Source of the DNA: Gemmatimonadales bacterium
Lineage (GTDB): Bacteria > Gemmatimonadota > Gemmatimonadetes > Gemmatimonadales > GWC2-71-9
Assembly: GCA_025934955.1 (NCBI GenBank)
Contig: JAICWE010000009.1
Location: 2,913 to 66,912 of the forward strand
Reading direction: 5' to 3'
Length of the DNA: 64,000 nt
The first letter of the stretch is position 1, and every line of letters starts with the position of its first letter. Of the stretch, positions 8,904 to 54,635 are shown piece by piece. The notes under the pieces were generated by a model that saw only the letters and a program-made list of their open reading frames with translations, searched no databases and had not been told where the DNA came from. Both the position numbers and the translations under genes were made by a program.

Positions 8904-9782
8904 GTGACGGCGGCGCCGGGCGTCGCGATCGTCCACGTCTCCGACGTGCACTTCGGGCGGGACTGCGACTTGGTCCAGATCGAAGCGCTGGAGACCTTCT
9001 TCCCGACGTTAGGCGCGCAGGCGATCGCCCTCTCCGGCGACCTGAGCCAGCGGGCCCGGCACGGCGAGCTGCAGGCGGCGCACGCCTTCGTCCAGCGGCT
9101 CCGCGCCGTGCTGCCGACGCTGGTGATTCCGGGCAATCACGACGTGCAGTGGTGGGCCAGCCCGTTCGGCGTGCGCGGCTCGGCGCCGCTCTACCGGAAG
9201 TACCGCCGCTACTTCGGCGAGGAGCTGACGCCGACGCTCGCGATCCCCGGCGCGGTGCTCGCGAGCGCGCTCACCAGCTTCGGCGTGTCGCCGGGCTCGC
9301 TCACGCCGCGGCTCCGCGACATGGCGGTGAAGGGTCACCTGCCGCGGAGCGAGACGGACCGGGTGCGCGACATCTTCGCCAAGGCCCCGGCCGGCGCGGC
9401 GAAGGTGCTGGTGATGCACCACAACGTGCTGCCGGGAAAGATCTCGGAGCGGATGGGCCTGGCGCACTGGCGCGACGCGCAGCGACGGCTGCAGGAGACC
9501 GGTGCCGACGTCGTGCTCTGCGGCCACGATCATCAGGAGGGCGCCGGACAGGTGAGCGGACGCCTGGCGGTGAGCGCCGCCGGCACCCACACGACGCGGA
9601 CCCGCGGCCGCCGGCCGTCGGTGTTCAACGTGGTCCGGGTGGATCGCGACTCGGTGCACATCCAGCACTACCGCTGGGAGGCGCACGGCCGCCATTTCCT
9701 CCCGTCCGACCGCTACACCTTCATGCGCGGCGACCCCCGGCACGCCGCGGTCTCCGTGGCCGGTGGCGACCAGCCCCGCTGA
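8904..9782 (+). CDS. metallophosphoesterase (calcineurin-like)
   Basis: IVHVSDVHFG, LSGDLS, IPGNHD, VLVMHHN, VLCGHDH. All the canonical MPE metal-binding motifs are present. Confidence 0.9.
   Translation: MTAAPGVAIVHVSDVHFGRDCDLVQIEALETFFPTLGAQAIALSGDLSQRARHGELQAAHAFVQRLRAVLPTLVIPGNHDVQWWASPFGVRGSAPLYRKYRRYFGEELTPTLAIPGAVLASALTSFGVSPGSLTPRLRDMAVKGHLPRSETDRVRDIFAKAPAGAAKVLVMHHNVLPGKISERMGLAHWRDAQRRLQETGADVVLCGHDHQEGAGQVSGRLAVSAAGTHTTRTRGRRPSVFNVVRVDRDSVHIQHYRWEAHGRHFLPSDRYTFMRGDPRHAAVSVAGGDQPR
9007..9015 (+). repeat. CGTTAGGCG 9-mer copy 1
   Basis: In the metallophosphoesterase CDS, read ACG-TTA-GGC-GCG (T-L-G-A). Confidence 0.9.
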
Positions 9783-10479
9783 GCCGGTCTCGATCCACGA
9801 CGCGCCGGCGCGGGTGCTCGCCCATCGCCTCGGCGCGCTCGGCTTCCGGCCGGCGCGACTCACGGTCCACCACAATCGCACCGTGCTCTTCTCCCACTCG
9901 CCCGGCAAGGGACTGCGGATCCACGCCGGCTTCGCCCAGGCGCCGGACCGCGTGCTGCTCGCGGTGGTGCACTACCTCCGGCCGCGTGCCTCGCGGGACG
10001 AGCGGGCGGCGGCGCGGCGGGTGTTCCTCGGCTTCCCGGTCCACGAGCACGCGCCGCCGAGGTCGCCGGCGCGGCTCCGCCGCCCCGAGCGGATGCGACG
10101 CGGCGACGCGGAGATCATCGAGCGGCTGGAGGCGCTGCACGTCGAGCTGAACCAGCGGCACTTCGAAGGGCGGCTCGCGCGGCTGCCGATCCGGTTGAGC
10201 GGCCGCATGCGGAGTCGGCTCGGCGAGATCGCGCTCGCGCGGGAGGGCGGGCGGCCGTACGTGATCACGCTGTCGCGCCGCCACCTGGCGCGGGACGGTT
10301 GGGACGAGGTCGGGCATACGCTGCTGCACGAGATGGTGCACCAATGGCAGGCGGAAACCGGCCGCACCGTGGACCATGGCGGCGAGTTCCGCCGCAAGGC
10401 ACGGGTGGTCGGCATCACGCCGAGCGCGGTGCGGGCGATCGTGCGGGGCGGCGCGGCGGAGGGCGTCGGCACCGGTTGA
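9763..10479 (+). CDS. SprT-like zinc metalloprotease domain protein
   Basis: LNQRHFEGRL...RLSGRMRSRLGE...LLHEMVHQWQAETG...HGGEFRRKA. Overlaps the upstream gene by 20 nt. Confidence 0.8.
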   Translation: MATSPAEPVSIHDAPARVLAHRLGALGFRPARLTVHHNRTVLFSHSPGKGLRIHAGFAQAPDRVLLAVVHYLRPRASRDERAAARRVFLGFPVHEHAPPRSPARLRRPERMRRGDAEIIERLEALHVELNQRHFEGRLARLPIRLSGRMRSRLGEIALAREGGRPYVITLSRRHLARDGWDEVGHTLLHEMVHQWQAETGRTVDHGGEFRRKARVVGITPSAVRAIVRGGAAEGVGTG

Positions 10480-10558
10480 TTCCGCGGCTGCGACGACCGA
10501 CGTATCTTGCGTCAGCGCCAGGCCGGCGCGTTTGCATCCCCACCAGCTCGAGGCACGC

Positions 10559-13270
<2,712 letters not shown>

Positions 13271-13346
13271 GGGCATCCGTCACCGACACCGGCGCGGCGC
13301 CGCAGCGATCATCCGCTGTCACGCGCCGGCCTTCCCAGGAGACGAC

Positions 13347-14213: not shown

Positions 14214-14285
14214 CGCGCCGGCTCGCGCCGGTCGCGCGGCGCGATCCACCGCGCTAGCTTGAGACCGTTTCCTCACGGACGGTCG

Positions 14286-15095
14286 ATGTCATCCCCCAAC
14301 TTGTCGGTCCAGTCGGACAACCCGGTTCCGGGTGCATCACGGGCGCGCGGCTACCTCGTCGCGTTCGGGCTCGTGGTGCTTGCCACGCTGCTCCGCGTCG
14401 GCATCGTGGACCCCCTCGTCGGGGACCGGCTGCCTTACATCACGTTTTTCGCCGCCGTGTTCGCCGTCGCCTGGTACGGCGCGCCCGGCCCGACGCTGTT
14501 TGCCGTCGTGCTGAGCGCGCTCGCGGCGGCGCTGCTGGTGCTCCGGCCGCTCGCATCGCAGGGCGGGCCCGCGCTGGCGCTTCCCGGCACCGCGCTCTTC
14601 CTCGCCGTCGGTCTCGGCGTCGCCGCGCTGGCTGAGGCGCGCCGGCGCTCCGCGGCGCGTCTGCGGGCGGAGCTGGAGGAGAACCAGCGGCTCCGGCAGG
14701 TGGCGGAGGACACCGCGGTCGAGGCGGAGAATGCCGTCGCCGAGGCGGAGGAGTCGCTGGACCAGCTGCTCGAGGCGGAGCAGGAGCTGCGGGCCAGCGA
14801 GGAGCGGCTGCGGGCGGCGCTGCGCATCGTGCCGCTCGGCGTGTTCACCCAGGACCGGGAACTGCGCTACACCTGGTACGAGAACTCGCTGGACGACGGC
14901 CGCGGGCCGGCGGTCGTCGGCCGGCGGGACACCGATCTGCTGGAGCCGCCCGATGCCGCGACGATCGAGCGGATCAAGCGGGCGGTGCTCGAAGCGGTCG
15001 CGGCAGCCGGCAGCTGGTGGAGGAGAGCCGCGACGGCGATCGCCGCGCCTACGACCTCACGCTGGAGCCGCTGCGCGATCGCGCCGGCGCGGTGA
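14286..15095 (+). CDS. hybrid sensor histidine kinase, N-terminal fragment (DUF4118-like membrane region, coiled coil, first half of PAS); interrupted by frameshift
   Basis: ATG 14286 in ORF 14259..15095. TM segments (YLVAFGLVVLATLL, ITFFAAVFAVAWY...). Then RLRAALRIVPLGVFTQDRELRYTWYENSL...ATIERIKRAVLE, after which the frame degenerates into AVAAAGSWWRRAATAIAAPTTSRWSRCAIAPAR. Confidence 0.7.
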   Translation: MSSPNLSVQSDNPVPGASRARGYLVAFGLVVLATLLRVGIVDPLVGDRLPYITFFAAVFAVAWYGAPGPTLFAVVLSALAAALLVLRPLASQGGPALALPGTALFLAVGLGVAALAEARRRSAARLRAELEENQRLRQVAEDTAVEAENAVAEAEESLDQLLEAEQELRASEERLRAALRIVPLGVFTQDRELRYTWYENSLDDGRGPAVVGRRDTDLLEPPDAATIERIKRAVLEAVAAAGSWWRRAATAIAAPTTSRWSRCAIAPAR

Positions 15096-16303
15096 TCGGC
15101 CTGGTCGGCGCGACGTACGACGTCACCGAGCGGCGCCGGCGCGACGCCCGGGAGCAGGAGGCCCGGCGGCTCGAGGCGATCGGCCGGCTGGCGGGCGGCG
15201 TCGCCCACGAGGCCAACAACCAGATGAGCGTGGTGCTCGGGGCCGCGCACTTCCTGCTCGCCGACGCCGAGCTGTCGCCCTCCGCGCGGTCCGACGCCGA
15301 CCAGATTCGCCGCGCGGCGGAGCGGACGGCGGCGGTCACCGCGCAACTCCTCGCCTTCGGCCGCCGCCAGCTGCTTCATGCCGCGCCGCTCGACGTGGGC
15401 ACCCTGGTCACGACTTTCCTGCCGGTCATCCGCCGCAGCGTCGGCGCCGGAATCGGCGTGGAGGCGACGGTCGCGGAGGGCGTCCGCGTCGTGGCCGATG
15501 CCGGCCAGCTGGAGCAGGTGCTGCTCAATCTCGCGCTCAACTCGCGCGACGCGCTGCCGCACGGCGGACGCATCGAGGTGCGGGTGGACACCGCCAGCGT
15601 CGGCACCAGTCGCACGGCGCCGAGCGGCGGCGAGGCCGTTCCGGCCGGCCGCTACGCGCGGATTCAAGTGGAGGACGACGGCGCCGGCATGAGCCGCGAG
15701 ACGCTGGCCCGCGTGTTCGAGCCGTTCTTCACCACCAAGGAGGTCGGCAAGGGGACCGGGCTCGGGCTCGCGATGGTGTACGGTATCGTCAGGCAGAGCG
15801 GCGGCTACATCCTCGCGACCAGCGCGCCGGGCGAAGGCGCGTGCTTCGAGATCTTTCTGCCGCTCACCGAGGCGGAGCTGGTCTCGAGCGATGCGGCCGC
15901 CGTGTCGCGCGCGCCGGGCGCGGAGCGGGTGCTGGTGGTGGACGATGACGCCGGGGTGCTCGCCGTCGCGACGCGCGCGCTGACCGAGTCGGGCTACGCC
16001 GTGGTGGCGGTGTCGAGCGCGGAGGCGGCGCTGCCGCAGACCGGGCATGCCGCGCGGGCCGAGCAGCCGTTCGCGATCGTCGTCTCCGACCTGATCCTGG
16101 GCGGGATGGACGGAGCGGCGCTGCTGATGCGGCTCTCCCACGAGGCGCCCGCGACGCGGGTGCTGCTCATGTCCGGCTTCGCCGACGAGGCGCGGCGCCG
16201 GGCGGCCGAGACGCAGCCGTACCCCGTTCTGCTCAAGCCGTTCGCGCCGGACGAGCTGCTGCAGCGGGTCCGGGAGTCACTGGACGGAGCGCTGGTGGAG
16301 TAA
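15017..16303 (+). CDS. hybrid sensor histidine kinase, C-terminal fragment (second half of PAS, HisKA, HATPase_c, REC)
   Basis: RRAYDLTLEPLRDRAGAVIGLVGATYDVTERRR (PAS end), LAGGVAHEANNQM (H-box), NLALNSRDA (N-box), DDGAGM, GTGLGLAMVYGIV (G-boxes), VLVVDDD...VVSDLILGGMDG...LLKPF (receiver). Confidence 0.85.
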   Translation: MEESRDGDRRAYDLTLEPLRDRAGAVIGLVGATYDVTERRRRDAREQEARRLEAIGRLAGGVAHEANNQMSVVLGAAHFLLADAELSPSARSDADQIRRAAERTAAVTAQLLAFGRRQLLHAAPLDVGTLVTTFLPVIRRSVGAGIGVEATVAEGVRVVADAGQLEQVLLNLALNSRDALPHGGRIEVRVDTASVGTSRTAPSGGEAVPAGRYARIQVEDDGAGMSRETLARVFEPFFTTKEVGKGTGLGLAMVYGIVRQSGGYILATSAPGEGACFEIFLPLTEAELVSSDAAAVSRAPGAERVLVVDDDAGVLAVATRALTESGYAVVAVSSAEAALPQTGHAARAEQPFAIVVSDLILGGMDGAALLMRLSHEAPATRVLLMSGFADEARRRAAETQPYPVLLKPFAPDELLQRVRESLDGALVE

Positions 16304-17609: not shown

Positions 17610-19769
17610 ATGATCCGCCTCCCGCTTGTTTCGTTCCTGATCGCGGCGTCGCTCCTCGGGGCGGCGCCGCTGGTTGCGCAGCAGCCCGATACCGCGCGCC
17701 GGGTCACGCGCGATTCCGTGGTCGAGCTCTCGCCGGTCGAGGTGACCGGGACCATCGCGCCGACCGCGTCGCCCAAGATCGGCTCGGGGGTGCCGGCGCG
17801 GATTTCGGTGATCAGCGGCGACGAGATCGATGCGTGGGAGCCGCGCCTCCTGACCGACGCGCTGCAGACCCAGGCGGGCTTTTCGCTCTACGACGACTTC
17901 GGCTCGCCCTACAAGACGTCGCTGGTCACCCGCGGCTTCTCGGCCGGCCCGATCCTCGGCCTGCCGCAGGGCGTGTCGGTGTTCCTCGACGGCGTGCGGC
18001 AGAACGAGCCCGACGCGGCGGAGGTGAACTTCGACCTGCTGCCGCTGGAGCACGTGAAGCGGGTGGAGTTCCTCCACGGCACCGCCTCGCTGCTCGGGCC
18101 GAATTCGTTAGGCGGCGCGATCAACCTGGTGACCGAGCGGGGCCAGGGGCCGCTCTCGGGCGACCTCGAGGTGTCGGGCGGAACGTACGGCCAGGCCAGC
18201 GTCGAGGGCTCGGTGGGCGGATCGGGCACGGCGGGCGACTACTACCTGGCCGGCGGCTTCGAGCGGGAAGACGGCTGGCGCGATGCCACCAACGCGCGGA
18301 ACGGCGACGTCTTCTTCAACCTGGGCCACACCCGTCCCGACCGCGGCCTCACGTTGCAGGGGCTCTACAGCCAGAGCCACGTGATGGCGGCGGGGAGCCT
18401 GCCCGAGGAGCTGTTCGCGACGGCGCCGCGCACCAACTTCACCCCCGGCGACCTCGACGACATCCGGCAGATCCAGGGCACCGTCTCCGCCTACCGCATC
18501 CTCGGCTCGACCCGGCTCTCGGCGACGGTGTATCACCGGCGCACCGACAGCGACCGCTTCAACGTCAATCAGGCGCCCGATCCCGACGTGCGGAGCGCGA
18601 CGGCCAACCGCACCGTCGGCGGGAACTTCGACGTGCGGCACGGCATGACCGTGGGCCAGCTGCCGCTGGCGCTCCGCGCCGGGGTCGACGGTACGGTGAA
18701 CCGGGTCGGCGTCAACATCTTCAATCAGTCGCCCGCCGACACGGTGGAGACGACATCGGTGAAGAGCCCGGGCTGGGACGTGTCCGGCTACGGCATCGCC
18801 GACCTCACCGCCGGCCGAGTGACGTTCTCCGCCGGACTCCGCTACGACTATATCCGCGTCCCGTTTCAGGACCTGCTCGATCCGTCGGCCGACACCACGA
18901 GCCACTTCAACCGCGCCAGCCCGCGCGGCGGCGTCAGCGTGGACCTGGGCGGCGGCGCGTCGCTGTACGGCTCGGTGGGACAGAGCTTCCGCGCTCCGGC
19001 GCTGCTGGAACTCACCTGCGCCGATGCCACCGCGCCGTGTCCGCTGCCGTTCGCGCTGGGCGACGACCCGCCGCTCAAGCCGGTGATCGCGACGAGCTAC
19101 GAAGTCGGCGGCAAGTGGGCGGCGGGGCGCGCCTCGGTGGATTTCTCGGCGTATCGCACCGACGTGCGGGACGACATCTTCTTCGTCGCGTCGGACGCGG
19201 CGCTGTTCGAGGGCTTCTTCAGCAACATCGGTCCCACCCGGCGCGACGGCGTCGAGGTCGGCGCCAACTACACGCTGTCGTCCCGCGTGTCGCTGTACGC
19301 CAACTACGCCTGGACCCATGCGACATTCCGCGCCGCGTCCGACCTGTTTTCGCCGCGGAGCGCCGCGGACCCGTCGAGTCCGATCTTCGGCCCCAACGAC
19401 GTTCAGCCGGGTGACGAGCTGCCGCTGGTTCCGCGACATCAGGCGCGGGCCGGCGCGCGGATCGGGCTGCCGGCGGGGTTCGAGACCGGCGTGGATGCGC
19501 GCTACGTCGGCACCCGCTGGCTCCGGGGCGACGAGGCGAACGAGACGACCAAGCTGCCGGACTATCTCGTCGCCGACGTGCGCGTGGCGTGGCGGGGCGG
19601 ACCGTGGGGCGTGAGCGCGATCGCGAGCAACGTGTGGGACCACCGCTATCCGACCTTCGGCACCTTCAACACCAACCGGCAGACCGACACGGTCGAGCGT
19701 TTCCTCACACCGGGGCTGCCGTTCCAGCTCCGGCTCCGGATCGAGCGGAACTTCGGGGCGGGGCAGTAG
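17610..19769 (+). CDS. TonB-dependent receptor
   Basis: Signal peptide, plug domain (ELSPVEVTGT...ISVISGDEI..., RGFS...VFLDGVRQNEP, GGAINLVT). Beta-barrel with a C-terminal aromatic-rich strand. Confidence 0.9.
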   Translation: MIRLPLVSFLIAASLLGAAPLVAQQPDTARRVTRDSVVELSPVEVTGTIAPTASPKIGSGVPARISVISGDEIDAWEPRLLTDALQTQAGFSLYDDFGSPYKTSLVTRGFSAGPILGLPQGVSVFLDGVRQNEPDAAEVNFDLLPLEHVKRVEFLHGTASLLGPNSLGGAINLVTERGQGPLSGDLEVSGGTYGQASVEGSVGGSGTAGDYYLAGGFEREDGWRDATNARNGDVFFNLGHTRPDRGLTLQGLYSQSHVMAAGSLPEELFATAPRTNFTPGDLDDIRQIQGTVSAYRILGSTRLSATVYHRRTDSDRFNVNQAPDPDVRSATANRTVGGNFDVRHGMTVGQLPLALRAGVDGTVNRVGVNIFNQSPADTVETTSVKSPGWDVSGYGIADLTAGRVTFSAGLRYDYIRVPFQDLLDPSADTTSHFNRASPRGGVSVDLGGGASLYGSVGQSFRAPALLELTCADATAPCPLPFALGDDPPLKPVIATSYEVGGKWAAGRASVDFSAYRTDVRDDIFFVASDAALFEGFFSNIGPTRRDGVEVGANYTLSSRVSLYANYAWTHATFRAASDLFSPRSAADPSSPIFGPNDVQPGDELPLVPRHQARAGARIGLPAGFETGVDARYVGTRWLRGDEANETTKLPDYLVADVRVAWRGGPWGVSAIASNVWDHRYPTFGTFNTNRQTDTVERFLTPGLPFQLRLRIERNFGAGQ
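18106..18114 (+). repeat. CGTTAGGCG 9-mer copy 4
   Basis: In the TonB-dependent receptor CDS, TCG-TTA-GGC-GGC (S-L-G-G). Confidence 0.9.
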
Positions 19770-20484: not shown

Positions 20485-21750
20485 ATGCCCGCCCCCAATC
20501 CAGCCGTCGTCCCGCCGCGCGCCCGGCACCCGTGGGTCTGGGCGGTGCTGTACTTCCCCTACGGCCTCACCTTCGGCTTCCCGGCCATCGCGCTCGGGTA
20601 TCTCGCCGGGCGCGCCGGCGTCGCCACCTCGGCGGTCGCGGGGATGGTCGGAATGGCGTTCCTCGCCGCCGGCTGGAAGTTCGTCTGGGCGCCGTTAGGC
20701 GACTACACCCTGTCGCGGAAGCGCTGGTACCTGCTGGCGGTCGCGGCGGTGTCGGCGGGGTTCGTCGCGCTTACGGCGCTGCCGCTCTCGTCGCGCACCG
20801 TGCCGCTGGCCGGCTTCCTCGTGCTGGTCTCCGGCGTCGCCGCCACGTTCCTCGCCTTTGCGACGGAAGGGCTGATGGTGCACAACACGCCGGCCGCGCA
20901 GCGCGGCCGGGCGGCGGGATGGTTCCAGTCGGGCAACCAGTTCGGGCAGACGGCGGGCGGCGGCGTCGGGCTCTGGCTCATCCACCACTCGCCCTCGCCG
21001 TGGATGGCGGGCATCGGGCTCACGGCGATCATCGGTGCCTGTGCGCTGGCGCTCCGCGGGCTGGAGGAGCCGCCGCGGCCGCTGGCCGGGGCGTCGTTCG
21101 GCGCGCGCATCGCCGATGTGGGCCGCGAGCTCGGCGGCGTGCTCCGCTCGCGGGCGGGGCGGGTCGGGCTGCTCCTCGCCATCCTGCCGATCGGCACGGC
21201 GGCGGCGCAGTTCCTCTTCGGCGCGCTCGGCCCCGAGTGGCACGCGTCGGCGGATACCGTCTCGTTCGTGCTCGGCGCGGGCGGCGGCCTCGCGATCGTC
21301 ACCGGCTGCTTCGCCGGCGGGCGGCTGGCCGACCGCATCGCCAAGACCCGGGCCTACGCAGTCGCCTGCGCGCTCATGATCCTGGCGTGCGTGGCGCTCG
21401 CGGTCTCGCCCCGGACCGAGGCCGGGTATGCCGCCGCGACGCTGTTCTACATCTTTGCCAACGGGATGGGCGCGGCGTCGTTCACGGCACTGGTGCTCGC
21501 GATCATCGGCGACAGCGCCGCCGCTACCAAGATCAACCTCTTCTTCGCGCTCAACACGCTGTTCAGTCTCGGCATGCTCCGGGTGGATGGCTGGGCGCAC
21601 GACGCGTGGGCGACGAACGGGATGCTGTACACCGAGGCGGGAGCGGGCGTGCTCGCGCTGGTGGTGTTCGCGGCGCTGGCTCCGGCGCTCCGGGGAACCG
21701 CCGGGGTAGCGGCCACCCGCCCGGCCGAGCGGGCGGCGGGTGCGGTGTAA
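20485..21750 (+). CDS. MFS transporter
   Basis: 421 aa, about 12 hydrophobic helices. The ORF is clean relative to the Arg-rich overlapping frames. Subfamily not assigned (possibly AmpG-like). Confidence 0.8.
   Translation: MPAPNPAVVPPRARHPWVWAVLYFPYGLTFGFPAIALGYLAGRAGVATSAVAGMVGMAFLAAGWKFVWAPLGDYTLSRKRWYLLAVAAVSAGFVALTALPLSSRTVPLAGFLVLVSGVAATFLAFATEGLMVHNTPAAQRGRAAGWFQSGNQFGQTAGGGVGLWLIHHSPSPWMAGIGLTAIIGACALALRGLEEPPRPLAGASFGARIADVGRELGGVLRSRAGRVGLLLAILPIGTAAAQFLFGALGPEWHASADTVSFVLGAGGGLAIVTGCFAGGRLADRIAKTRAYAVACALMILACVALAVSPRTEAGYAAATLFYIFANGMGAASFTALVLAIIGDSAAATKINLFFALNTLFSLGMLRVDGWAHDAWATNGMLYTEAGAGVLALVVFAALAPALRGTAGVAATRPAERAAGAV
20693..20701 (+). repeat. CGTTAGGCG 9-mer copy 5
   Basis: In the MFS CDS, CCG-TTA-GGC-GAC (P-L-G-D). 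Confidence 0.9.
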
Positions 21751-24014: not shown

Positions 24015-25775
24015 ATGGCACGCAACGCGTCGCGCGTCCTGGTGGACACGCTGATCGCCTGGGGTATCGACACCGTGTTCGGCCTGCCGGGTGACGGGAT
24101 CAACGGCATCATGGAGGCACTGCGCGAGCGGAAGGACGCCGTTCGCTTCATCCAGGTGCGGCACGAGGAGGCGGCGGCGTTCATGGCCTGCGCCCACGGC
24201 AAGTACACCGGCCGGCTCGGCTGCTGTCTCGCGACCTCGGGCCCCGGCGGCATCCACCTGCTGAACGGGCTGTACGACGCGAAGCTGGACCAGGTCCCGG
24301 TCGTCGCCATCACCGGCCAGACCTTCTCCGATCTGCAGGGGAGCCGGTTCCAGCAGGAGATCAACATGACGCTCCTGTACGAGGACGTGAGCGTCTACAA
24401 CCAGGAGCTGATCAACCCCGACCAGATCGAGATGCTGGCCGACGAGGCGTGCCGCCGCGCGCTCAACAATCGCGGCGTCGCCCACTTGAATCTCCCGGTG
24501 GATTATCAGGAGGCGGAGCCGTCGGGCAAGGGATCGATGCACCGGGTCCCCGGCTTCACGGACGCGAGCTGGACCCGCGCGATCACGGTCCCGCCGGAGC
24601 GGCAGCTCGCCCACGCCGCCGAGGTGCTGGGCTCGGCGAAGCGGCCGGTGATGCTGGTGGGACAGGGCGCGTTAGGCGCGCGCGAGGCGGTCATCGCGGT
24701 CGCCGACCGGCTCGGCGCGCCCATCGTCAAGGCGCTGCTGGGCAAAGGCGTCGTGCCGGACGATCACCCGCTCACCACCGGCGGCCTCGGCCTGCTGGGC
24801 ACCGCGCCGTCGCAGGAGGCAATGGAAGACTGCGACGCGCTGCTGATCGTCGGCTCGTCATTCCCCTACATGGAGTACCTGCCGAAGCACGACCAGGCGG
24901 TCGGCGTGCAGATCGACGACAAGGCCGACCGGATCGGACTGCGCTACCCGGTGCGCGTCGGGCTGGTGGGCGACGCGCGCGCGACGCTGGAGGCGCTGCT
25001 GCCATTCCTGCCGGAGCAGACCGACCGCACCTGGATCGCGCGGGCGCAGCAGGCCATGGTCGAGTGGTGGTCGCTGATGGAGGAGCGGGAGTCGCGCGAC
25101 GGCGCGCCGATCAAGCCGCAGCGAGTCGCGCGGGAGCTGGATGCCCTGCTCTCCGACGACGCCATCATCTCCACCGACTCGGGCACCATCACGACCTGGG
25201 TCGCGCGGCACGTACGGCTTCGCGGCGAGCAGCAATTCAGCTGCTCCGGCACGCTCGCGACGATGGCGCCGGGGCTGCCGTACGCCGTGGCCGCGCAGCT
25301 CGCCTATCCCGACCGGCAGAGCGTCGCGTTCGTGGGCGACGGCGGCTTCACCATGCTCATGGGCGAGTTCGCCACCGCGGTGAAGTACGACCTGCCGATC
25401 GTGGTCGTCATCATCAAGAACAACACGCTGGGCCAGATCAAGTGGGAGCAGATCGTCTTCCTCGGCAACCCCGAGTACGGCTGCGAGCTCCAGCCGATCG
25501 ACTTCGCGAAATACGCCGAGGCGTGCGGCGGCGTCGGCATCTCGGTGGAGCGGCCGGAGGAGCTTCGGCCCGCGCTGGAGCGTGCCTTCGCCTCGCGCCG
25601 GCCGACGGTGGTCGAGGTGCTGGTGGATCCGAACGAGCCGCCGATGCCACCCAAGATCTCCGCGAAGCAGGCGCTGCACTTCGCCGAGGCGCTGGCGAAG
25701 GGCACGCCGGGCGGCGGGCGGATCGCGCTCACGCTGTTCCGCGACAAGCTCAGCGAGATCATTCCGTCCAAGTAG
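24015..25775 (+). CDS. poxB: thiamine-diphosphate-dependent pyruvate oxidase / pyruvate dehydrogenase (quinone), PoxB-like
   Basis: VFGLPGDGINGI, HEEAAAFMA, SGPGGIHLLNGLYDA. ThDP motif GDGGFTMLMGEF...VVVIIKNN. 586 aa. Confidence 0.85.
   Translation: MARNASRVLVDTLIAWGIDTVFGLPGDGINGIMEALRERKDAVRFIQVRHEEAAAFMACAHGKYTGRLGCCLATSGPGGIHLLNGLYDAKLDQVPVVAITGQTFSDLQGSRFQQEINMTLLYEDVSVYNQELINPDQIEMLADEACRRALNNRGVAHLNLPVDYQEAEPSGKGSMHRVPGFTDASWTRAITVPPERQLAHAAEVLGSAKRPVMLVGQGALGAREAVIAVADRLGAPIVKALLGKGVVPDDHPLTTGGLGLLGTAPSQEAMEDCDALLIVGSSFPYMEYLPKHDQAVGVQIDDKADRIGLRYPVRVGLVGDARATLEALLPFLPEQTDRTWIARAQQAMVEWWSLMEERESRDGAPIKPQRVARELDALLSDDAIISTDSGTITTWVARHVRLRGEQQFSCSGTLATMAPGLPYAVAAQLAYPDRQSVAFVGDGGFTMLMGEFATAVKYDLPIVVVIIKNNTLGQIKWEQIVFLGNPEYGCELQPIDFAKYAEACGGVGISVERPEELRPALERAFASRRPTVVEVLVDPNEPPMPPKISAKQALHFAEALAKGTPGGGRIALTLFRDKLSEIIPSK
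24670..24678 (+). repeat. CGTTAGGCG 9-mer copy 6
   Basis: In the PoxB-like CDS, GCG-TTA-GGC-GCG (A-L-G-A). Confidence 0.9.
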
Positions 25776-39066: not shown

Positions 39067-39077
39067 CGCCGCACACC

Positions 39078-39102
39078 GGCGCGCCCGCCCGTCAGGCGCG
39101 CC
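39078..39102 (+). terminator. possible stem-loop terminator after the GGDEF gene (no U-tract)
   Basis: GGCGCGCC (39078-39085), 9-nt loop, GGCGCGCC (39095-39102). The 8-mer is self-complementary. 12 nt after the stop codon. The tail is not T-rich. Confidence 0.3.
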
Positions 39103-39500
39103 TGCAACTCGTGTCGCTCGCCGCGCGCCGACCGGCTCGAATCCGGCCGGTGTTCGCTTTCTATGGATTGTGCTCCGTCGCGGGGACGCGCACTGTGGAG
39201 TGGGCGCTCGAAGACCTACGCGCGCTTCAGGGGCCGGCGGCAGTCACGAGCGGCGGGCAGGTTGGCGGTGCGGGTCCCGATCCCCGCGCCGTCGGCCGGT
39301 CCGCCTCTCGTCGTGTGGGTGCGAGTCCGTCGTGTAACCCGCTGCACGCGGCAGCGTCCGCGCTGTGCGATTCCTGAGGGCGTTCGGAAATTCGGAATTG
39401 TGCGACCTGCCGTCGGGCGCGACTGTGTGGCGGGGCCCAAGGGTGCGGCGGGGATTCACGACGGTTGGGCTTCGGATGCGCAGCTCTCGAGGGCGCAGCG

Positions 39501-39752
39501 ATGGGCCCGGTCACCGAGCGGCGGTATCGCACCCCCGACGGCCAGGAGTGGATCTTCACCGAGCGCGAGCACGTGCGCCGCGGCGAAGAGGGCCGCCTCG
39601 CCGCGGTGATGGTGCGCTCGCAGCGGCACTCCCGCATCGTCATCTGCCTGCGGGGCGAGTGGGATGCCCCCGAGCCCGATCTCGACACGCTGCTCGTCGC
39701 CTCGATGCCGAGCGGCGCGTCCAAGTCGGCTACGCCTCCCCCAGTACCTTGA
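39501..39752 (+). CDS. small hypothetical protein (83 aa)
   Basis: ATG 39501 in ORF 39465..39752: MGPVTERRYRTPDGQEWIFTEREHVRRGEEGRLAAVMVRSQRHSRIVICLRGEWDAPEPDLDTLLVASMP... Balanced, protein-like composition. The 3' end overlaps convergent yjbQ by 23 nt. Confidence 0.45.
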   Translation: MGPVTERRYRTPDGQEWIFTEREHVRRGEEGRLAAVMVRSQRHSRIVICLRGEWDAPEPDLDTLLVASMPSGASKSATPPPVP

Positions 39753-42612: not shown

Positions 42613-43956
42613 TCACGGGAAGAACGCCCGGTGCAGCCGGCGCACCACATCCGGCCCGTCGCCCTCGTGCACCACGAACGTCATGTTGATCGCCGACGCG
42701 CCCTGCGAGATCACGTCCACGTTGGCCGGCGGCACCGCGGCGAAGATCCGCGCCGCGAGCCCCGGCGTGTGCCGGATCCCCACGCCCACCACCGCGACGA
42801 TGGCACGGTGCGGCTCGGTCCACACCTCGCCTAACGCCGCCAGGTCCTCGATGATGGGCTCCAGCCGGCTGGTGTCCTCGATCGTCAGTGAGACGCTCAC
42901 CTCGCCGCTCGCGAGCACGTCCACCGCCGTCTCATGCCGCTCGAAGACCTCGAAGATGGCGCGCAGAAAGCCGAAGGCGCCGAGCATCCGGGGCGCGCGG
43001 ATGTTGACGACGGTGATGCCGCGCTTGAACGAGATGGAGCGCACCGGCCGCTCCTCGCTCCACATCGGCGATTCCGCCGTGATCGTGGTGCCGGCACCAT
43101 CAGGACGTGCCGAGTTGAGGATGACGATCGGAATCCGCTCCTTCACCAGCGGCAGCTGCGTCGCGGGGTGCAGCACCTTGGCCCCGAACGTCGCCAGCTC
43201 CGCCGCCTCATCGTACGTCGCGGCCGGCAGCACCCGTGCCTCGGGGACGATGCGCGGATCGGCGGTCATGAGCCCGTCCACGTCGGTCCAGATCTCGACC
43301 CGCTCGGCCCGAAGGGCCGCACCGAGCAGCGCCGCGGTGAAATCGGACCCGCCGCGGCCGAGCGTCGTCGGCACGCGGTCGCCGGTCGCGCCGATGAAGC
43401 CCTGGGTGACGGGGATGCGGGCGGCGTCGAGCAGCGGGAGCAGCCGACCGGCGGCCCGCGCGGCGATCTCGTCGCGCTGCGGCACCGCGCGGCCGTGGCG
43501 GCCGTCGGTCACCACCACGTCGCGGGCATCGACCCACTCGGCCGGCAGCCGCCGGCCGGCGAGCGCCGCGGCGACGAGCCGCGAGCTCCACAGTTCGCCG
43601 TGCGCCACCAGCGCGTCGGCCTCGCGGGCGGTGAGTGCGCGTCCGAGCGCGGCGGTCAGCTCGTCCAGCAGGATGGCCGCGTCATCGAGGATCTGGTCCA
43701 TCGCCTTCGCCGCGCCGGGAAGCTGCGCCGCGACGGTGCGGTGCCGCTCCACCAGCTGTGCCAGCCCGACGTCCACCGCGCCGAGGTCACCGAGCGCCAC
43801 GTGGCGCGTGAGCTGGAGCAGGCCGTCGGTCACCCGCGCGAGGGCCGAGACGACGATGAGCGGCCGCTCCGCCGCGCGGGCCGCGACGATGTCGCCCAGC
43901 CGCCGGATCGCGGCGGCGTCCTGCACCGACGTCCCGCCGAACTTGCAGACGATCAC
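42613..43956 (-). CDS. lysC: aspartate kinase
   Basis: GTG 43956 gives VIVCKFGGTSV... LIVVSALARVTD, TLGRGGSDFTA. Two C-terminal ACT-like regions. GTGA overlap with the asd stop. Confidence 0.95.
   Translation of the reverse strand: MIVCKFGGTSVQDAAAIRRLGDIVAARAAERPLIVVSALARVTDGLLQLTRHVALGDLGAVDVGLAQLVERHRTVAAQLPGAAKAMDQILDDAAILLDELTAALGRALTAREADALVAHGELWSSRLVAAALAGRRLPAEWVDARDVVVTDGRHGRAVPQRDEIAARAAGRLLPLLDAARIPVTQGFIGATGDRVPTTLGRGGSDFTAALLGAALRAERVEIWTDVDGLMTADPRIVPEARVLPAATYDEAAELATFGAKVLHPATQLPLVKERIPIVILNSARPDGAGTTITAESPMWSEERPVRSISFKRGITVVNIRAPRMLGAFGFLRAIFEVFERHETAVDVLASGEVSVSLTIEDTSRLEPIIEDLAALGEVWTEPHRAIVAVVGVGIRHTPGLAARIFAAVPPANVDVISQGASAINMTFVVHEGDGPDVVRRLHRAFFP
42828..42836 (-). 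repeat. CGTTAGGCG 9-mer copy 7 (only minus-strand copy)
   Basis: In lysC (minus strand), sense orientation, GCG-TTA-GGC-GAG (A-L-G-E). Confidence 0.9.
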
Positions 43957-45014
43957 GCGAGCCCCTCCGCCGCGAGCAGCTCCGCGATCTGCACTCCGGC
44001 GCCTGCGGCGCCGCGAATGGTGTTGTGGCCGAGGAGCACGAGGCGGAGATCCAGCAGCGGGCACGGCCGCACCCGGCCGACGGTGATCGCCATGCCGCCG
44101 CCGCGCTCGAGGTCGAGCCGGGGCTGCGGGCGATCGTGGCGCTCATCCACTTCCACCGGCGGATTGGGTGACGACGGCAGCGACCGCACCCGGTCGCTGC
44201 CGCGAAAGTCGCGCATCGCCACGATCGCCTCCGCCGGAGAGACCCGTCGCCCGAGGCCGACCGACACCGTCATCAGATGACCGTCAACGGTCGGGACGCG
44301 GTTGGCGTGCGCGCTCAGCACGATGGAGGCCGGTGTCACCCGCCCGGTCTCGACGGCGCCGAGGATCTTGCACGTCTCCCGCTCGATCTTCTCCTCCTCG
44401 CCGCCGATGTGGGGCACGACATTGCCCAGGATGTCGAGCGACGCGACGCCGGGATAACCCGCGCCGGACACCGCCTGCATCGTCGAAACGAACAGCTTCT
44501 CGACGCCGAACGCGCGGTGCAGCGGCGCCAGCGCGAGCACCAGGGCGGCGGTGGAGCAGTTGGGATTGGCGACGATGCCGCCGGACCAGGCGCGCGCCTC
44601 GCGCTGGCGCCGGAGCAGCGCCAGGTGATCGTCGTTGATCTCCGGAATCATGAGCGGGACGTCGTCTTCCATGCGGTGGGTCCGGGTGTTCGTCACCACC
44701 ACCGCGCCCGCCTGTGCGAACGCCTGCTCGATCGGTCCCGCGACGCCGGCGTCGAGCGCGGAGAAGACGATCGGCGTGTCGAGCGGGGGCGCCGATCGCC
44801 GGACGGTCATCGCGGCAATGCGGGGCGCGAGCGGCACCGTCTCCCGCCAGCGCACCACCTCGCCGTAAACGCGCCCGGCGCTCTGCTCCGAGGCCGCCAC
44901 CGCCATCAGCTCGAACCACGGATGCTCCGCCAGCAGCCGCACGAACTTCTGCCCGACGGTGCCGGTGGCGCCCAGCACGGCGACCGGGATGCGTCGCGGC
45001 GGCTTCTCGCTCAC
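43953..45014 (-). CDS. asd: aspartate-semialdehyde dehydrogenase
   Basis: GTG 45014 gives VSEKPPRRIPVAVLGATGTVGQ. NPNCSTAAL (catalytic Cys), SGAGYPG, AHANRVPTVDGH. GTGA overlap with the upstream gene's stop. Confidence 0.95.
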   Translation of the reverse strand: MSEKPPRRIPVAVLGATGTVGQKFVRLLAEHPWFELMAVAASEQSAGRVYGEVVRWRETVPLAPRIAAMTVRRSAPPLDTPIVFSALDAGVAGPIEQAFAQAGAVVVTNTRTHRMEDDVPLMIPEINDDHLALLRRQREARAWSGGIVANPNCSTAALVLALAPLHRAFGVEKLFVSTMQAVSGAGYPGVASLDILGNVVPHIGGEEEKIERETCKILGAVETGRVTPASIVLSAHANRVPTVDGHLMTVSVGLGRRVSPAEAIVAMRDFRGSDRVRSLPSSPNPPVEVDERHDRPQPRLDLERGGGMAITVGRVRPCPLLDLRLVLLGHNTIRGAAGAGVQIAELLAAEGLA

Positions 45015-46015
45015 GCGTCCTCCCGCGCCAGCAGGTCCTGCGCGAGCCGCACGTAGAGATCCACGCCGTCGAGCAGCTCGCGCTTGGCGATCCGCTCGTC
45101 GTCCGTGTGCGCGACCTTGATCGTTCCCGGCCCCAGCTGAAAGCCTTCGCCCCACGCGCTGAGGAGGCCGAGGTCGGAGGCGTAGCTCACAGTGGTCGTC
45201 TCCCATCCCGCCGGCGCCAGGGCGCCCTTCACGAAGGGCAGCTCCACCGCCGCATCCACCGTGACGCCGGGCCGCGCGCACGCCCTGACCGCGGCCTTGA
45301 GCGGCCCGGTCGGCTCGACGGTGCGAAAGAGGATCTGGGCGGAGGCGTGCGGCGGGATCACGTTAGGCGCGACGCCGCCCTGGATCAGCCCGATGTTCAT
45401 GGTGGAGGGACCGAGCACCGGGTCGGTCGGGAGCGGGAGCCGGCGGATCGCGTCGAGCGTGTCGAGCAGCGGCTCGATCGCGCTGCGTCCTTCAGCGGGA
45501 TACGCCGAGTGCGCCGCGCGGCCGGTGGCGCTCAGGTCCACCCGCAGCGAGCCCTTCTGCCCGACGGTGAGCCGGTTCTCGGTCGGCTCGCCGTTCACCA
45601 GGATGTGGCCCTTCGGCGCGAGCGAGCCCGCGGCGGTGGCGCCGTCGGAGCCGTTCTCCTCGCCGACCACGAAGAGCAGGCCGATCCGCCGCTCGCCCGC
45701 ATCCGCCAGGCGCGCCGCGGCCGCGACCATCGCGGCGGCGATGCCCTTTGCGTCGCAGACGCCGCGGCCGTAGAGATGGCTCTCGTCCTCGTGCAGCGGC
45801 AGGAACGGCGGCACGGTGTCGAGGTGGGTCGAGAAGACCAGCGCCGGCGCGCCGCGATGCGCGTAGACGTTGAACCGGCCGTGCTGCACCGGCTGGCGAG
45901 TCACCTGCCAGCCCGCGCCGTCGAGCAGGTCGGCGAGGTGCGCGGCGACGGACGTCTCGTGTCCGGTGGTCGAATCAATGCGGCAGAGCGCGCGGGTGAG
46001 CTCGATCGGGTCCAT
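45011..46015 (-). CDS. dapE: M20 family metallohydrolase (succinyl-diaminopimelate desuccinylase / ArgE-like)
   Basis: STHLDTVP, GRGVCDAKG, FVVGEENGSDG, GRAAHSAYP. The dapE assignment rests on operon context with dapD/dapA/dapB. GGAGG lies 5 nt before the ATG. Confidence 0.75.
   Translation of the reverse strand: MDPIELTRALCRIDSTTGHETSVAAHLADLLDGAGWQVTRQPVQHGRFNVYAHRGAPALVFSTHLDTVPPFLPLHEDESHLYGRGVCDAKGIAAAMVAAAARLADAGERRIGLLFVVGEENGSDGATAAGSLAPKGHILVNGEPTENRLTVGQKGSLRVDLSATGRAAHSAYPAEGRSAIEPLLDTLDAIRRLPLPTDPVLGPSTMNIGLIQGGVAPNVIPPHASAQILFRTVEPTGPLKAAVRACARPGVTVDAAVELPFVKGALAPAGWETTTVSYASDLGLLSAWGEGFQLGPGTIKVAHTDDERIAKRELLDGVDLYVRLAQDLLAREDA
45361..45369 (+). repeat. CGTTAGGCG 9-mer copy 8
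   Basis: Plus-strand copy inside the minus-strand dapE-like CDS. Antisense to the gene, read GCG-CCT-AAC-GTG (A-P-N-V). Confidence 0.9.
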
Positions 46016-49558: not shown

Positions 49559-49623
49559 TCAGCGCGCCGCCGCGGGCGGTCTCAGGAGAGACGTCCTGGT
49601 GTGTTGCACGTGCAGCCGCTCCG

Positions 49624-49682: not shown

Positions 49683-49717
49683 TGATGCGGGGCCGACCCG
49701 CGCCCGCGGCGGACGAG

Positions 49718-51639: not shown

Positions 51640-51745
51640 GGGGCGGGAATATGCGGGCGGCGGGCGCGGCGGCAAGACGCGACGCCGGGAGAACGCAACG
51701 AAGGCCCGCCGGAGCGGGCCTTCGGATCGAGCGGCCGTGGCTGCG

Positions 51746-52717: not shown

Positions 52718-52818
52718 GGTACGACCTCCGGGAGACGGGCGGCGATGCTGGTTGTGCGGACGAGTGCCCCGAATATTTCATGCGCTGCACAATCCCGCAA
52801 CGCGTGCGCCCGTGCCGC

Positions 52819-54108
52819 TCAGTATGGCGGCGCCGCCACATGCACCGCGTCATCCAGCAGGATCGCCGACAGCTCGGCGCCGGCCGCGGTCTCGTGCTGG
52901 CCCTCCGGAATCACCAGCAGCGCGTTCGCCAGCACCATCGAGGTGAGGATTCCCGAGCCCTGCGGCCCGGTGAGCCACGCGTCGGGCAGCCCGTCGGCGT
53001 TCGGCGTGACGATACCGCGGAGAAAGTGCTGCAGCTTCGGCTTGAGCGAGATCGGCTCGGCGGCGCGGGCGCGCACCGCGCGGCGGAACGGCAGTGCGTG
53101 GCCGCACATCGCCCGGATCGCGGGCCGCACGAACAGCTCGAACGTCACCATGGTGCTCACCGGATTGCCCGGCAGCCCGATCCACGGAATGCCGCCGATC
53201 ACGCCGAAGCCGACCGGCGCGCCCGGCCGCATCCGCAGCTTCCAGAACCGCTGCTCCGCACCCAGGTCGGTGAGCACCTCGCGCACGTAGTCGTGCTCGC
53301 CCACGCTGATGCCGGCGGTGGTCACCAGGAGATCGCAGTCGAGCGCGCGCTCGACGTGCTCGCGCAGGCTCTCCCGGGTATCACGCGCGATGCCGAGGTT
53401 GACCGGCTCGCCGCCGGCCAGCCGCACCAGGGCGACCAGCGTATGGGTGTTGCTGCTCGCGGTGCGGCGCCCGCTGAGGATCTCCTCGGGCTGGTCCACG
53501 TCCACGATCTCGTCGCCGCTGCCCAGAATGGCGACGCGGGGCCGCCGGTAGACCAGCGGGTGCGCCACCGCCAGCGACGCGAGCACGCCGAGGTGCGCCG
53601 GGCCGAGCGCGGCGCCGTCCCGCAGCACCACCGCGCCTCGGCGAACGTCTTCGCCGACCCGGCGGAAGTTCACGCCGGCGTCGCGGTCCTGGTAGATCGT
53701 CACCGTCTCACCGCCGCCGTCGGTGTCCTCCTGCCGCACCACGCCGTCGGCGCCCTCCGGCAGCGGCGCGCCGGTGAAGATGCGGGCGCACTCGCCCGGC
53801 CCGAGCGCGCGGGTGGGGAAGCTCCCGGCCGCGAGCTGTTCCACCACGCGGAGCCGCACCGGCGCCGCTTCGCTCGCGCCCCGCACGTCCGCACTGCGGG
53901 TGGCGTAGCCGTCCATCGCGGAGTTGGTCCGCGCGGGTATGTCGAGCGGGCTCACCACGTCCTCCGCCAGCACACTGCCGAGCGCGTCGTCCAGCGGGAC
54001 GCGCAGCGGCGGCTGGCGGCGGACCTCGGCGAGAATGCGTCGCGCCGCATCGGCGGCGGCGAGCGGACCGCTCGCCCCGGCGTTCGGGTCGCGCTCCGGC
54101 GGCGTCAC
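52819..54108 (-). CDS. moeA: molybdopterin molybdenumtransferase MoeA
   Basis: GTG 54108 (GTGA overlap with the mobB stop) in ORF 52819..54234. NSAMDGYA, ILGSGDEI, NTHTLVAL, TTAGISVGEHDY, PGNPVSTMV. Confidence 0.9.
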   Translation of the reverse strand: MTPPERDPNAGASGPLAAADAARRILAEVRRQPPLRVPLDDALGSVLAEDVVSPLDIPARTNSAMDGYATRSADVRGASEAAPVRLRVVEQLAAGSFPTRALGPGECARIFTGAPLPEGADGVVRQEDTDGGGETVTIYQDRDAGVNFRRVGEDVRRGAVVLRDGAALGPAHLGVLASLAVAHPLVYRRPRVAILGSGDEIVDVDQPEEILSGRRTASSNTHTLVALVRLAGGEPVNLGIARDTRESLREHVERALDCDLLVTTAGISVGEHDYVREVLTDLGAEQRFWKLRMRPGAPVGFGVIGGIPWIGLPGNPVSTMVTFELFVRPAIRAMCGHALPFRRAVRARAAEPISLKPKLQHFLRGIVTPNADGLPDAWLTGPQGSGILTSMVLANALLVIPEGQHETAAGAELSAILLDDAVHVAAPPY

Positions 54109-54635
54109 GCCTCGAGCGGGAGCCCGCGCTCGAGCGCGAGCCCGGCGAGCGCCTGGAGCCACATGGTGTCGTTGAAGCGGAGCACGCGGCAGGGCGCCGC
54201 GAGGCGGGGATCGTCGGTGACGATCGCGATCCACTCCCCGGCGTTAGGCGCCGCGGGGTCGTAGAGCGGTCGCGCGCCGGCGGCGAGCCGGTGCACTTCG
54301 ATCTTGGGGAGCGGCGCGCGCTTGTAGCCCTCGGCGATGACGAGGTCGGCGTCGGCGAGGTAGCGGCGGGCGAGGGCGACGGGGTCGTAGAGATCGGGCG
54401 CGCGCTCGAAGAGGACGCGGCCCTCCGGCCCCGCGAGCAGCGTCCGCTCCGCGCCGGCTTCCTGAAAGTGGCGCCAGCTGTCGGAGCCGGGGATGTCGGG
54501 CTGGCCGGCGTGGTGGCCGTGCTTGATCGTCATCACCCGCACCCGCCGCCGCAGCAGCTCGCCGGTGAGCGCCACCGTCAGCGTGGTCTTGCCGGCGTTC
54601 TTCCGTCCGATGATCGAGACGATCCGTGCTGCCAC
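54105..54635 (-). CDS. mobB: molybdopterin-guanine dinucleotide biosynthesis protein B
   Basis: MAARIVSIIGRKNAGKTTL (P-loop), IKHGHH, VIAEGYK. Confidence 0.9.
   Translation of the reverse strand: MAARIVSIIGRKNAGKTTLTVALTGELLRRRVRVMTIKHGHHAGQPDIPGSDSWRHFQEAGAERTLLAGPEGRVLFERAPDLYDPVALARRYLADADLVIAEGYKRAPLPKIEVHRLAAGARPLYDPAAPNAGEWIAIVTDDPRLAAPCRVLRFNDTMWLQALAGLALERGLPLEA
54242..54250 (+). repeat. CGTTAGGCG 9-mer copy 9
   Basis: Plus-strand copy inside minus-strand mobB. Antisense to the gene, read GCG-CCT-AAC-GCC (A-P-N-A). Confidence 0.9.

Follow-up and report, generated by a model that had tools for sequence, protein, structure and literature searches.

What force writes the same nine bases into one housekeeping gene after another, and does so through the rarest codon of a G+C-rich genome? 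The question is raised by a 64,000-nucleotide stretch of DNA from a Gemmatimonadales bacterium (NCBI GenBank assembly GCA_025934955.1, contig JAICWE010000009.1, positions 2,913 to 66,912 of the forward strand; the whole stretch is called the window below), in which the non-palindromic nonamer CGTTAGGCG occurs nine times, eight times on the + strand and once on the − strand. A preliminary description, made from the letters of the window alone, had listed these copies, and all nine coordinates and strands proved exact on recount. We find that CGTTAGGCG is a strongly over-represented DNA-level signal in unrelated housekeeping genes, and that it is installed by silent substitutions where the protein allows, Ser-, Pro-, Thr- or Ala-Leu-Gly being written as NCG-TTA-GGC and, on the opposite strand, Pro-Asn as CCT-AAC. 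Sequence comparison further indicates that it represents a stricter, local dialect of a word that is hyper-abundant elsewhere and has the core GTTAGGC and, in Gemmatirosa, the consensus YGTTAGGCR.

A nine-base word in unrelated housekeeping genes

The excess of the word persists under every null model that was run on the window. Dinucleotide shuffles gave an expectation of 0.33 copies, with none of 100 shuffles exceeding two; Markov models of order 0–3 gave 0.11–0.77 copies; and synonymous-codon shuffles, which keep the proteins and the codon usage, gave 0.06 copies when codons were pooled and 0.19 when they were exchanged within genes, the highest count among 500 such shuffles being 2. Together, the nulls expect 0.06–0.8 copies where nine are observed, and the over-representation that had been estimated roughly from base composition holds against codon-shuffled and Markov expectations alike. 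TTAGG or CCTAA occurs ten times in the window, nine times within CGTTAGGCG and once in the near-copy GATTAGGCG at 4512, which is the confinement to ten sites seen earlier by eye. One-mismatch variants of CGTTAGGCG at the outer positions 1, 2, 6, 7, 8 and 9 are absent from the window, and the window copies share no conservation outside the nine bases and no longer repeat or mobile element.

Genes of the window were called by codon-usage score and then checked with Pfam, and all nine copies lie inside Pfam-supported, ordinary housekeeping genes, which agrees with the claim that every copy is coding. Seven are sense and read as NCG-TTA-GGC-G, and two (in the M20 peptidase and MobB genes) are antisense and read as CCT-AAC, a division that had been described correctly. 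TTA occurs in frame eight times in ~19,900 codons of the window, seven times inside CGTTAGGCG and once at 630, as first reported. The copies are single, mostly in one orientation, and 0.8 to about 20 kb apart. Their positions, with those of the near-copy and of a variant that differs by one transition, are as follows.

9007 to 9015, + strand: CGTTAGGCG, sense, ACG-TTA-GGC-G (Thr-Leu-Gly), in a calcineurin-like phosphoesterase gene (8904–9782, +)
11184 to 11192, + strand: CGTTAGGCG, sense, TCG-TTA-GGC-G, in a Ser/Thr kinase-TPR gene (about 10376/10559–13270, +), where it sits in the stretch 'SDVYSLGAVLYEML' within the Pkinase match
12015 to 12023, + strand: CGTTAGGCG, sense, GCG-TTA-GGC-G, the second copy of the Ser/Thr kinase-TPR gene
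18106 to 18114, + strand: CGTTAGGCG, sense, TCG-TTA-GGC-G, in the plug domain of a TonB-dependent receptor gene (17610–19769, +)
20693 to 20701, + strand: CGTTAGGCG, sense, CCG-TTA-GGC-G, in an MFS transporter gene (20485/20545–21750, +)
24670 to 24678, + strand: CGTTAGGCG, sense, GCG-TTA-GGC-G, in a thiamine-pyrophosphate enzyme gene (24015–25775, +)
42828 to 42836, − strand: CGTTAGGCG, sense, GCG-TTA-GGC-G, in the aspartokinase gene lysC (42613–43956, −); the sole copy on this strand
45361 to 45369, + strand: CGTTAGGCG, antisense, GCG-CCT-AAC-G (Ala-Pro-Asn), in an M20 (DapE-like) peptidase gene (45011–46015, −)
54242 to 54250, + strand: CGTTAGGCG, antisense, GCG-CCT-AAC-G, in mobB (54105–54635, −)
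4512 to 4520, + strand: near-copy GATTAGGCG, which matches at seven of the nine bases and lies at the 5′ end of cstA (2490–4523, −); probably not a functional copy
7680 to 7688, + strand: one-transition variant CGTTGGGCG, ACG-TTG-GGC-G, in the frame and peptide context of CGTTAGGCG; perhaps a copy that is still forming or has decayed
2927 to 2935, − strand: one-transition variant CGTTGGGCG, CCG-TTG-GGC-G, in cstA
55090 to 55098, − strand: one-transition variant CGTTGGGCG, GCG-TTG-GGC-G

Silent installation at conserved peptides

Within the window, TTA is used in 7 of the 34 [STPA]-Leu-Gly-[GAVDE] contexts, against one TTA in ~2,030 leucine codons elsewhere (p = 1e-12), and CCT-AAC is used in two of the four [STPA]-Pro-Asn-[GAVDE] contexts. 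The other two open frames of CGTTAGGCG demand V-R-R or R-L-T and three changes. The single-frame pattern emphasized in the preliminary description is largely explained by the fact that only certain peptides permit silent installation (34 Leu-Gly against 4 Pro-Asn contexts).

Orthologous sites were compared in a survey of 80 related loci centred on lysC (L001–L080). By its lysC the window belongs to the Gemmatimonadales; the best match is 68–73% identical, and all matches are metagenome-assembled genomes (MAGs). The lysine cluster at 42613–46015 of the window (dapD-like/dapA/dapB/lysC/asd/M20, dapE-like) is syntenic across many Gemmatimonadales MAGs, and 62 of the loci centred on lysC yielded an orthologue of the M20 gene. 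At the lysC site of the word, Leu-Gly is kept in ~80 orthologues, mostly with CTG or CTC; the word is complete at this codon in one locus (L046), and another (L048) has CGTTAGGTG. At the M20 site, Pro-Asn is kept in ~40 of the 62 orthologues, mostly with CCC or CCG, most others have Ala-Asn, and Asn is nearly universal. CCT-AAC stands at this Pro-Asn site in four loci, and the GCG-CCT-AAC-GTC of L048, in an APNV context, appears to be the same word site. The orthologues thus keep Leu-Gly and Pro-Asn with ordinary codons, which substantiates the proposal that synonymous choice is subordinate here to a DNA word.

A syntenic relative, L093, whose TonB receptor is 72% identical, has CTC at all four alignable sites (ACG-CTC-GGC at 9007, GCG-CTC-GGA at 11184, GCC-CTC-CAC at 12015) and a single copy of the octamer CGTTAGGC in 22 kb; at the fourth site, 18106, the 72–75% identical orthologues in L093 and L095 have CTC and CTG, respectively. 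L094, a Logan contig from another sample's run, differs from the window at 5 of 2,948 bases (99.8% identical) and keeps the 18106 copy, the one copy that it covers; beyond it, the nearest relatives found are 72–75% identical in the TonB receptor. The preliminary description had put forward conservation in related genomes as a check. In these nearest, 72–75% identical relatives the word is not conserved, and its occurrence across the order is patchy.

The word on the Gemmatirosa megaplasmids

Twelve 50-kb stretches (600 kb; L081–L092) were sampled from both megaplasmids of Gemmatirosa kalamazoonensis KBS708. They hold 380 copies of CGTTAGGC against 7–19 expected, one per 1.6 kb. Plasmid CGTTAGG is followed by C in every case, position 9 is A in 41%, G in 43%, C in 13% and T in 2% of copies, and no conserved flanks extend beyond the word around the 380 copies. 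The sole common one-off variant, TGTTAGGC (53 copies), occurs mostly as CTG-TTA-GGC, where C at position 1 is impossible without a change of protein. The core is GTTAGGC and the Gemmatirosa consensus YGTTAGGCR. The window dialect is stricter and fixes C at position 1 as well as G at position 9. The latter holds for 9/9 window copies against 163/380 on the plasmids (p = 6e-4), and TG-TTA-GGC is used in 0/29 window contexts against 39/254 plasmid contexts (p = 0.02).

By gene calls, 163 plasmid copies are sense, 156 of them as NCG-TTA-GGC; 103 are antisense, 89 of them as CCT-AAC; and 114 lie outside called genes (30% of copies in ~13% of the DNA), the word being about three times denser where no gene is called. 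Sense, antisense and non-coding copies have identical sharp edges. Although TTA makes up ~1% of leucine codons and CCT ~2% of proline codons on the plasmids, TTA fills 156 of the 526 NCG-Leu-GGC contexts and CCT-AAC 89 of the 166 (G)-Pro-Asn-(G) contexts, so that the word uses 30–54% of its silent opportunities; almost all of the 210 TTA codons in plasmid genes lie within it. TTG, one step from TTA, is enriched in the word context too, in a further 50 of the 526 plasmid contexts and in 4 of 46 in the window.

Because the 103 antisense and 114 non-genic copies share the edges of the sense copies, the word is read as DNA and not as codons: the signal is a DNA-level word under strong directional force, independent of translation. 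A TTA codon-context effect, such as bldA-style control or a ribosome pause site, had been offered as the alternative and would suit the window, where seven of nine copies are sense in one frame and seven of eight TTA codons lie in the word. It is refuted by the antisense and non-genic Gemmatirosa copies; the two antisense window copies in Pfam-supported genes, the unrelated functions of the host genes and a frame set by the peptides that permit silent installation also oppose it, and we regard it as extremely improbable.

Spacing of the plasmid copies is near Poisson (variance-to-mean ratio 0.84) and shows no periodicity. Word density rises with local G+C (rho = 0.27, p = 0.0025), opposite to the prediction from composition, and G+C is lower in the longest stretches that lack the word, among them a SusC/SusD locus, parAB, and genes for glycosyltransferases and ABC transporters; both patterns would be expected of a tag that builds up in resident DNA. 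ParA- and ParB-like genes (L088 47563–49494; NZ_CP007130.1, about 647.6–649.5 kb) lie on plasmid 2 within one of its longest stretches free of the word, and they may mark the replication and partition region.

Distribution among relatives

The word is missing from most of the 80 related loci. Enrichment of CGTTAGGC was seen in L045 (six copies on +, none on −, in 13.5 kb), L048 (none on +, four on −, in 11 kb) and L046 (three on +), and is absent in L043, L050, L093 and about 60 others. In a neighbour-joining tree of lysC the window stands alone amid ~40 word-free loci, and the word-bearing L045, L046 and L048 have word-free sisters in L043 and L050. A metagenome scan that required close direct pairs returned soil contigs of 70–74% G+C with many dispersed copies on both strands (for example, 11 copies in 8.4 kb in L200 and 8 copies in 10.5 kb in L113), and the word is also enriched in megahit-type Illumina MAG contigs. 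The core in separate lineages with word-free sisters suggests that the reader of the word is mobile or easily lost, and the same comparisons suggest that the word may decay quickly once unprotected. Such patchiness fits poorly with recognition by the vertically inherited RecBCD/AddAB or FtsK. Word-bearing lineages reuse the lysC and M20 sites, as expected where silent opportunities are few and near saturation.

A crude k-mer screen of word-free relatives for other hyper-abundant dialect words found none, and only a longer repeat in L016. In this word-free Gemmatimonadales MAG, a repeat of ~150 bp occurs three times (2129–2270, 7657–7800 and 15052–15195), with inverted '...GGGCGATTTTAGCACTTGCCACTGGACCCCGAC' arms ~120 nt apart, and resembles a miniature inverted-repeat transposable element or a repetitive extragenic palindromic element.

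Strand orientation

The strand bias of 8:1 reported for the window is exact as a count. Its statistics are thin (plain binomial p = 0.04; 8/24 silent opportunities used on + against 1/14 on −, p = 0.11), and it is not general, the plasmids carrying 187 copies on + and 193 on − (49:51), with segment ratios mostly near 50:50 and borderline heterogeneity among segments (p = 0.055). When the origin is guessed, post hoc, to lie at parAB, 57% of plasmid copies fall on the presumed leading strand (p = 0.012). A skew of the grade of FtsK-orienting polar sequences (KOPS) is excluded in the plasmids. Locally, orientation is more coherent: the plasmids contain runs of 9–12 co-oriented copies, and in L083, 16 of 18 copies over 6–30 kb lie on −, across genes called on +. 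Antisense copies in the window, L045 and L048 follow the majority DNA strand (pooled p = 0.0003, from loci that were partly selected), and neighbouring copies in opposite-strand genes are not co-oriented above expectation. Polarity correlates weakly with GC skew (rho = 0.40, p = 0.045) and not significantly with gene-strand-corrected skew at third codon positions (rho = 0.26). The GC skew of G. kalamazoonensis is reported to be degraded by rearrangements (PMC11237797), which could hide a stronger polarity of the word, and a skew of the grade of Chi recombination sites could have been blurred in this way.

In the window, GC skew flips sign near 32 kb and is positive over 1–32 kb, where 6/6 copies are on +, and gene orientation changes from + to − across a 660-bp convergent gap (39067–39729). 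A conserved strand-biased region around the terminus has been described in Gemmatimonadota (PMC11237797). A terminus with a dif site was considered for the window and rejected: no dif-like CATAA-N6-TTATG was found there even with 2 mismatches, and the orientation of the word does not switch at 39.1–39.7 kb, in keeping with the earlier remark that it persists across the gene-strand switch near 39.5 kb.

What may read the word

Strong enrichment built from the rarest codons should require a force that favours the whole word; repair biased at single bases would not produce a TTA core against GC pressure. The mechanism known to yield an enrichment of this size, and such behaviour in coding frames, is biased uptake followed by recombination. 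It spreads the DNA uptake sequences (DUS) of Neisseriaceae and the uptake signal sequences (USS; AAGTGCGGT) of Pasteurellaceae, which are enriched tens to hundreds of times, Chi sites only a few-fold. The comparison class named in the preliminary description (Chi, FtsK-orienting and uptake sequences) was the right one, and within it we lean, tentatively, towards an uptake- or recombination-linked self tag of the DUS/USS kind, spread by molecular drive. The enrichment would most likely come from a step that depends on sequence, either while DNA is taken up or while incoming DNA is processed; DNA carrying the word would be recombined into the genome more readily, so that the word would spread by molecular drive; and the putative reader protein would probably be encoded by a mobile or easily lost gene. 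Shared with DUS and USS are a short non-palindromic word, over-represented tens to hundreds of times and present about once per 1–2 kb in the Gemmatirosa plasmids; placement in genes through the frames cheapest for the protein, with greater density outside genes; and enriched one-off variants, lineage-specific dialects and a composition atypical for the genome. The DUS of Neisseriaceae likewise have a core, GCCGTCTGAA, with dialects (PMC3630211). For uptake sequences of this type, a specific receptor such as ComP gives competent cells a preference for DNA that bears the word. The near-equal orientations of the plasmid copies would suit DUS and USS; the window, L045 and L048 are one-sided. It is possible, though doubtful, that YGTTAGGCR serves as a genome-wide self-DNA tag of some soil Gemmatimonadales, whose mobile reader would be an uptake receptor or a nuclease/helicase-type machine of defence or recombination.

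The word differs from DUS and USS in its phylum and sequence and in a patchiness that extends even to sister lineages, and several observations weigh against an uptake tag. Hairpins formed between called genes by a few inverted pairs of the word speak for such a tag, yet only two tight pairs occur among the 380 plasmid copies, unlike DUS terminators; and the window density of 1 per 7 kb is low. Adjacent plasmid copies are co-oriented in 216 cases against 152 (p = 0.001), and other word-bearing contigs are as one-sided as the window (6:0 in L045 and 0:4 in L048, +:−). We know of no description of such local runs for DUS or USS, and the runs hint at a polar signal in a rearranged genome; the orientation data come from the 64-kb window, metagenome and MAG contigs and plasmid stretches. 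Literature searches on uptake, transformation and competence in Gemmatimonadota returned nothing relevant, and the reader protein is hypothetical only.

A polar signal would be natural for a Chi-like site, which RecBCD or AddAB would read in one orientation, protecting self ends and stimulating RecA loading, and which would be enriched by selection and by preferential recombination of Chi-carrying linear DNA. E. coli Chi, GCTGGTGG, is read by RecBCD and the Chi sites of Firmicutes by AddAB; they are non-palindromic words of 5–8 bases, one per few kb, with ~60–80% of copies on the leading strand. The word matches them in being a non-palindromic 8–9-mer with G or T at five of eight core bases and in its density of 1 per 1.6–7 kb; its local one-strand runs fit the orientation dependence expected of Chi, and the weak GC-skew correlation and the 57% on the presumed leading strand, which degraded GC skew could be masking in part, may point the same way. 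However, its enrichment of 20–100 fold and its 30–54% saturation greatly exceed what known Chi sites show, and these generally consist of common codons whereas the word uses the rarest; the plasmids show no global skew; opposite-strand gene neighbours are not co-oriented beyond expectation; and the patchy lineages would imply that a core, vertically inherited enzyme had either converged on this specificity or lost it several times. We consider a Chi-like role unlikely, and far less credible still is a polar guide of the KOPS type, or of the SpoIIIE recognition sequence (SRS) type, that would direct FtsK or SpoIIIE towards dif. With these the word shares a non-palindromic 8-mer and the one-strand bias of the window, including the six + copies where GC skew is positive; KOPS-type motifs, however, are G-rich and >80–90% skewed towards dif, whereas the word is not G-rich, is densest on megaplasmids, is patchy and does not switch at the convergent boundary of a window that lacks a dif-like site, and the 187:193 split with at most 57% on the presumed leading strand rules against this reading.

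Other readings involve neither uptake nor polarity. The cyanobacterial palindrome HIP1 (GCGATCGC) is an octamer over-represented 15–300 fold (PMC5861425), and a word of its kind would be kept through a DNA methyltransferase, nicking-repair or nucleoid role. The hyper-abundance of our word lies in the HIP1 range; like HIP1 it occurs in all tolerated gene frames and between genes and is kept against drift; its patchiness suits mobile genes of the restriction-modification type; and its flanks (YG...CR) are symmetric about the asymmetric core. Yet HIP1 is a palindrome with a cognate methyltransferase, whereas CGTTAGGC is not palindromic (its reverse complement is GCCTAACG); very-short-patch repair, which converts only T:G to C:G, should be unable to make the TTA core against GC pressure; and the spacing is near Poisson without periodicity. 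A HIP1-like role ranks third, behind a Chi-like one, and seems improbable as a separate explanation, although the function of HIP1, long debated, is now linked to transformation and recombination, and the report that methylated HIP1 boosts transformation (bioRxiv 10.1101/2024.09.10.611283) means that this reading and the uptake tag may overlap. An integron origin, with the copies as attC halves or secondary integrase sites, is suggested by the core alone: GTTAGGC is a common form of the core-site consensus GTTRRRY of attC and attI, and a genuine cassette array was seen in a metagenome contig (L184). The window copies, however, are single, lie inside conserved housekeeping genes and form no inverse-core/core pairs; plasmid pairs within 200 nt divide into five '-+' and five '+-' with no excess at 50–150 nt; and neither cassette structure nor extended attC-like conservation surrounds the plasmid copies, which look unlike the true array, so that this origin is very hard to credit. 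Least plausible of all is chance or a sequencing or assembly artefact. TTA is two transitions from CTG, and transition errors of this type have been reported for nanopore reads at methylated motifs, but the nulls stay far below nine, no copy makes a stop codon, CGCTGGGCG (four copies) and CGTTGGGCG (three copies) stay unconverted in the window, Asn is conserved at the antisense M20 site in nearly all 62 orthologues, one copy is kept in the Logan contig from another sample, and the word is enriched in Illumina MAGs and in the finished Gemmatirosa plasmids.

Other sequence features

Depletion of CTG before GGC was considered as a sign of conversion to TTA and rejected, as CTG-GGN is avoided in all contexts. 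Leucine CTG is strongly avoided before glycine GGN in the window and in plasmid stretches L081–L092 whatever the preceding codon; after a C-ending codon the plasmid counts are 264 for CTC-GGC and 25 for CTG-GGC, and in other settings CTG and CTC are used about equally. The effect is one of codon pairs or of CTGG avoidance and has nothing to do with the word.

The integron-type gene-cassette array spans the whole of L184, a 6.7-kb metagenome contig of 62% G+C. At least six pairs of GCCTAAC and GTTAGGC, 60–135 nt apart within a pair and all in one orientation, follow one another at 260–1100 nt, each preceded by a conserved TTRAGCGCRATC; the 7-mer core is the same and the phenomenon clearly different.

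Tandem arrays of the word itself (2–4 copies at 9–13 bp spacing) occur in L132 (3013–3038), L208 (2238–2267), L119 (22–55), L083 (8118–8173, coding for PNAT repeats) and L082 (22094–22113), some coding and others outside called genes or on unannotated contigs. Because most were found by the close-pair search, nothing can be read from how often they occur; slippage might have produced them, or they might serve as arrays that bind a protein. Satellites of the heptamer (TTAGGCG)n with TTAAGCG variants lie in contigs of 44–45% G+C (L201 8751–8900 and 10721–10830; L110 873–1030 and 7975–9030). The satellites in L201, L110, L120 and L138 were set aside; those of L201 and L110 include the word simply because their repeat unit spells it, and they have no relation to the signal in Gemmatimonadales. 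Telomere-like heptamers (GCTTAGGTG TTAGGGA TTAGGGC CTAGGG) stand at 10810–10835 of L048, 0.3 kb from the end of that 11.1-kb contig.

Significance

Very few short words are known to have been pushed to hyper-abundance in bacteria. DUS, USS and HIP1 are the chief examples, Chi and KOPS being less extreme, and each has revealed a DNA-handling machine. Full-text literature searches for the present word returned unrelated matches only, mostly primer or construct sequences judging by their titles; for Gemmatimonadota, searches on Chi, KOPS, uptake sequences and hyper-abundant words brought up no relevant work. YGTTAGGCR apparently has no earlier report; words of its general kind are known from other phyla. 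It is built round the rarest codon of a 72% G+C genome and fills 30–54% of its silent positions on the plasmids, which points to a strong sequence-specific force and probably to frequent homologous recombination or DNA uptake in these bacteria. In practice, the word offers a compositional marker for binning these lineages from metagenomes, and TTA usage in these genomes mirrors a DNA signal, not translational regulation. KBS708 is cultured and its plasmid sequences are finished, so the hypotheses are directly testable, and because the word is so patchily distributed, the reader gene could be sought by phylogenetic profiling. Gemmatimonadota are a major soil phylum that has barely been cultured. 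If YGTTAGGCR is indeed a genome-wide self tag, it would extend uptake-sequence-like systems for the first time beyond Neisseriaceae and Pasteurellaceae, or would be a new Chi-like self marker independent of core RecBCD/AddAB specificity, and it would imply frequent homologous DNA exchange in an abundant soil phylum without known competence.

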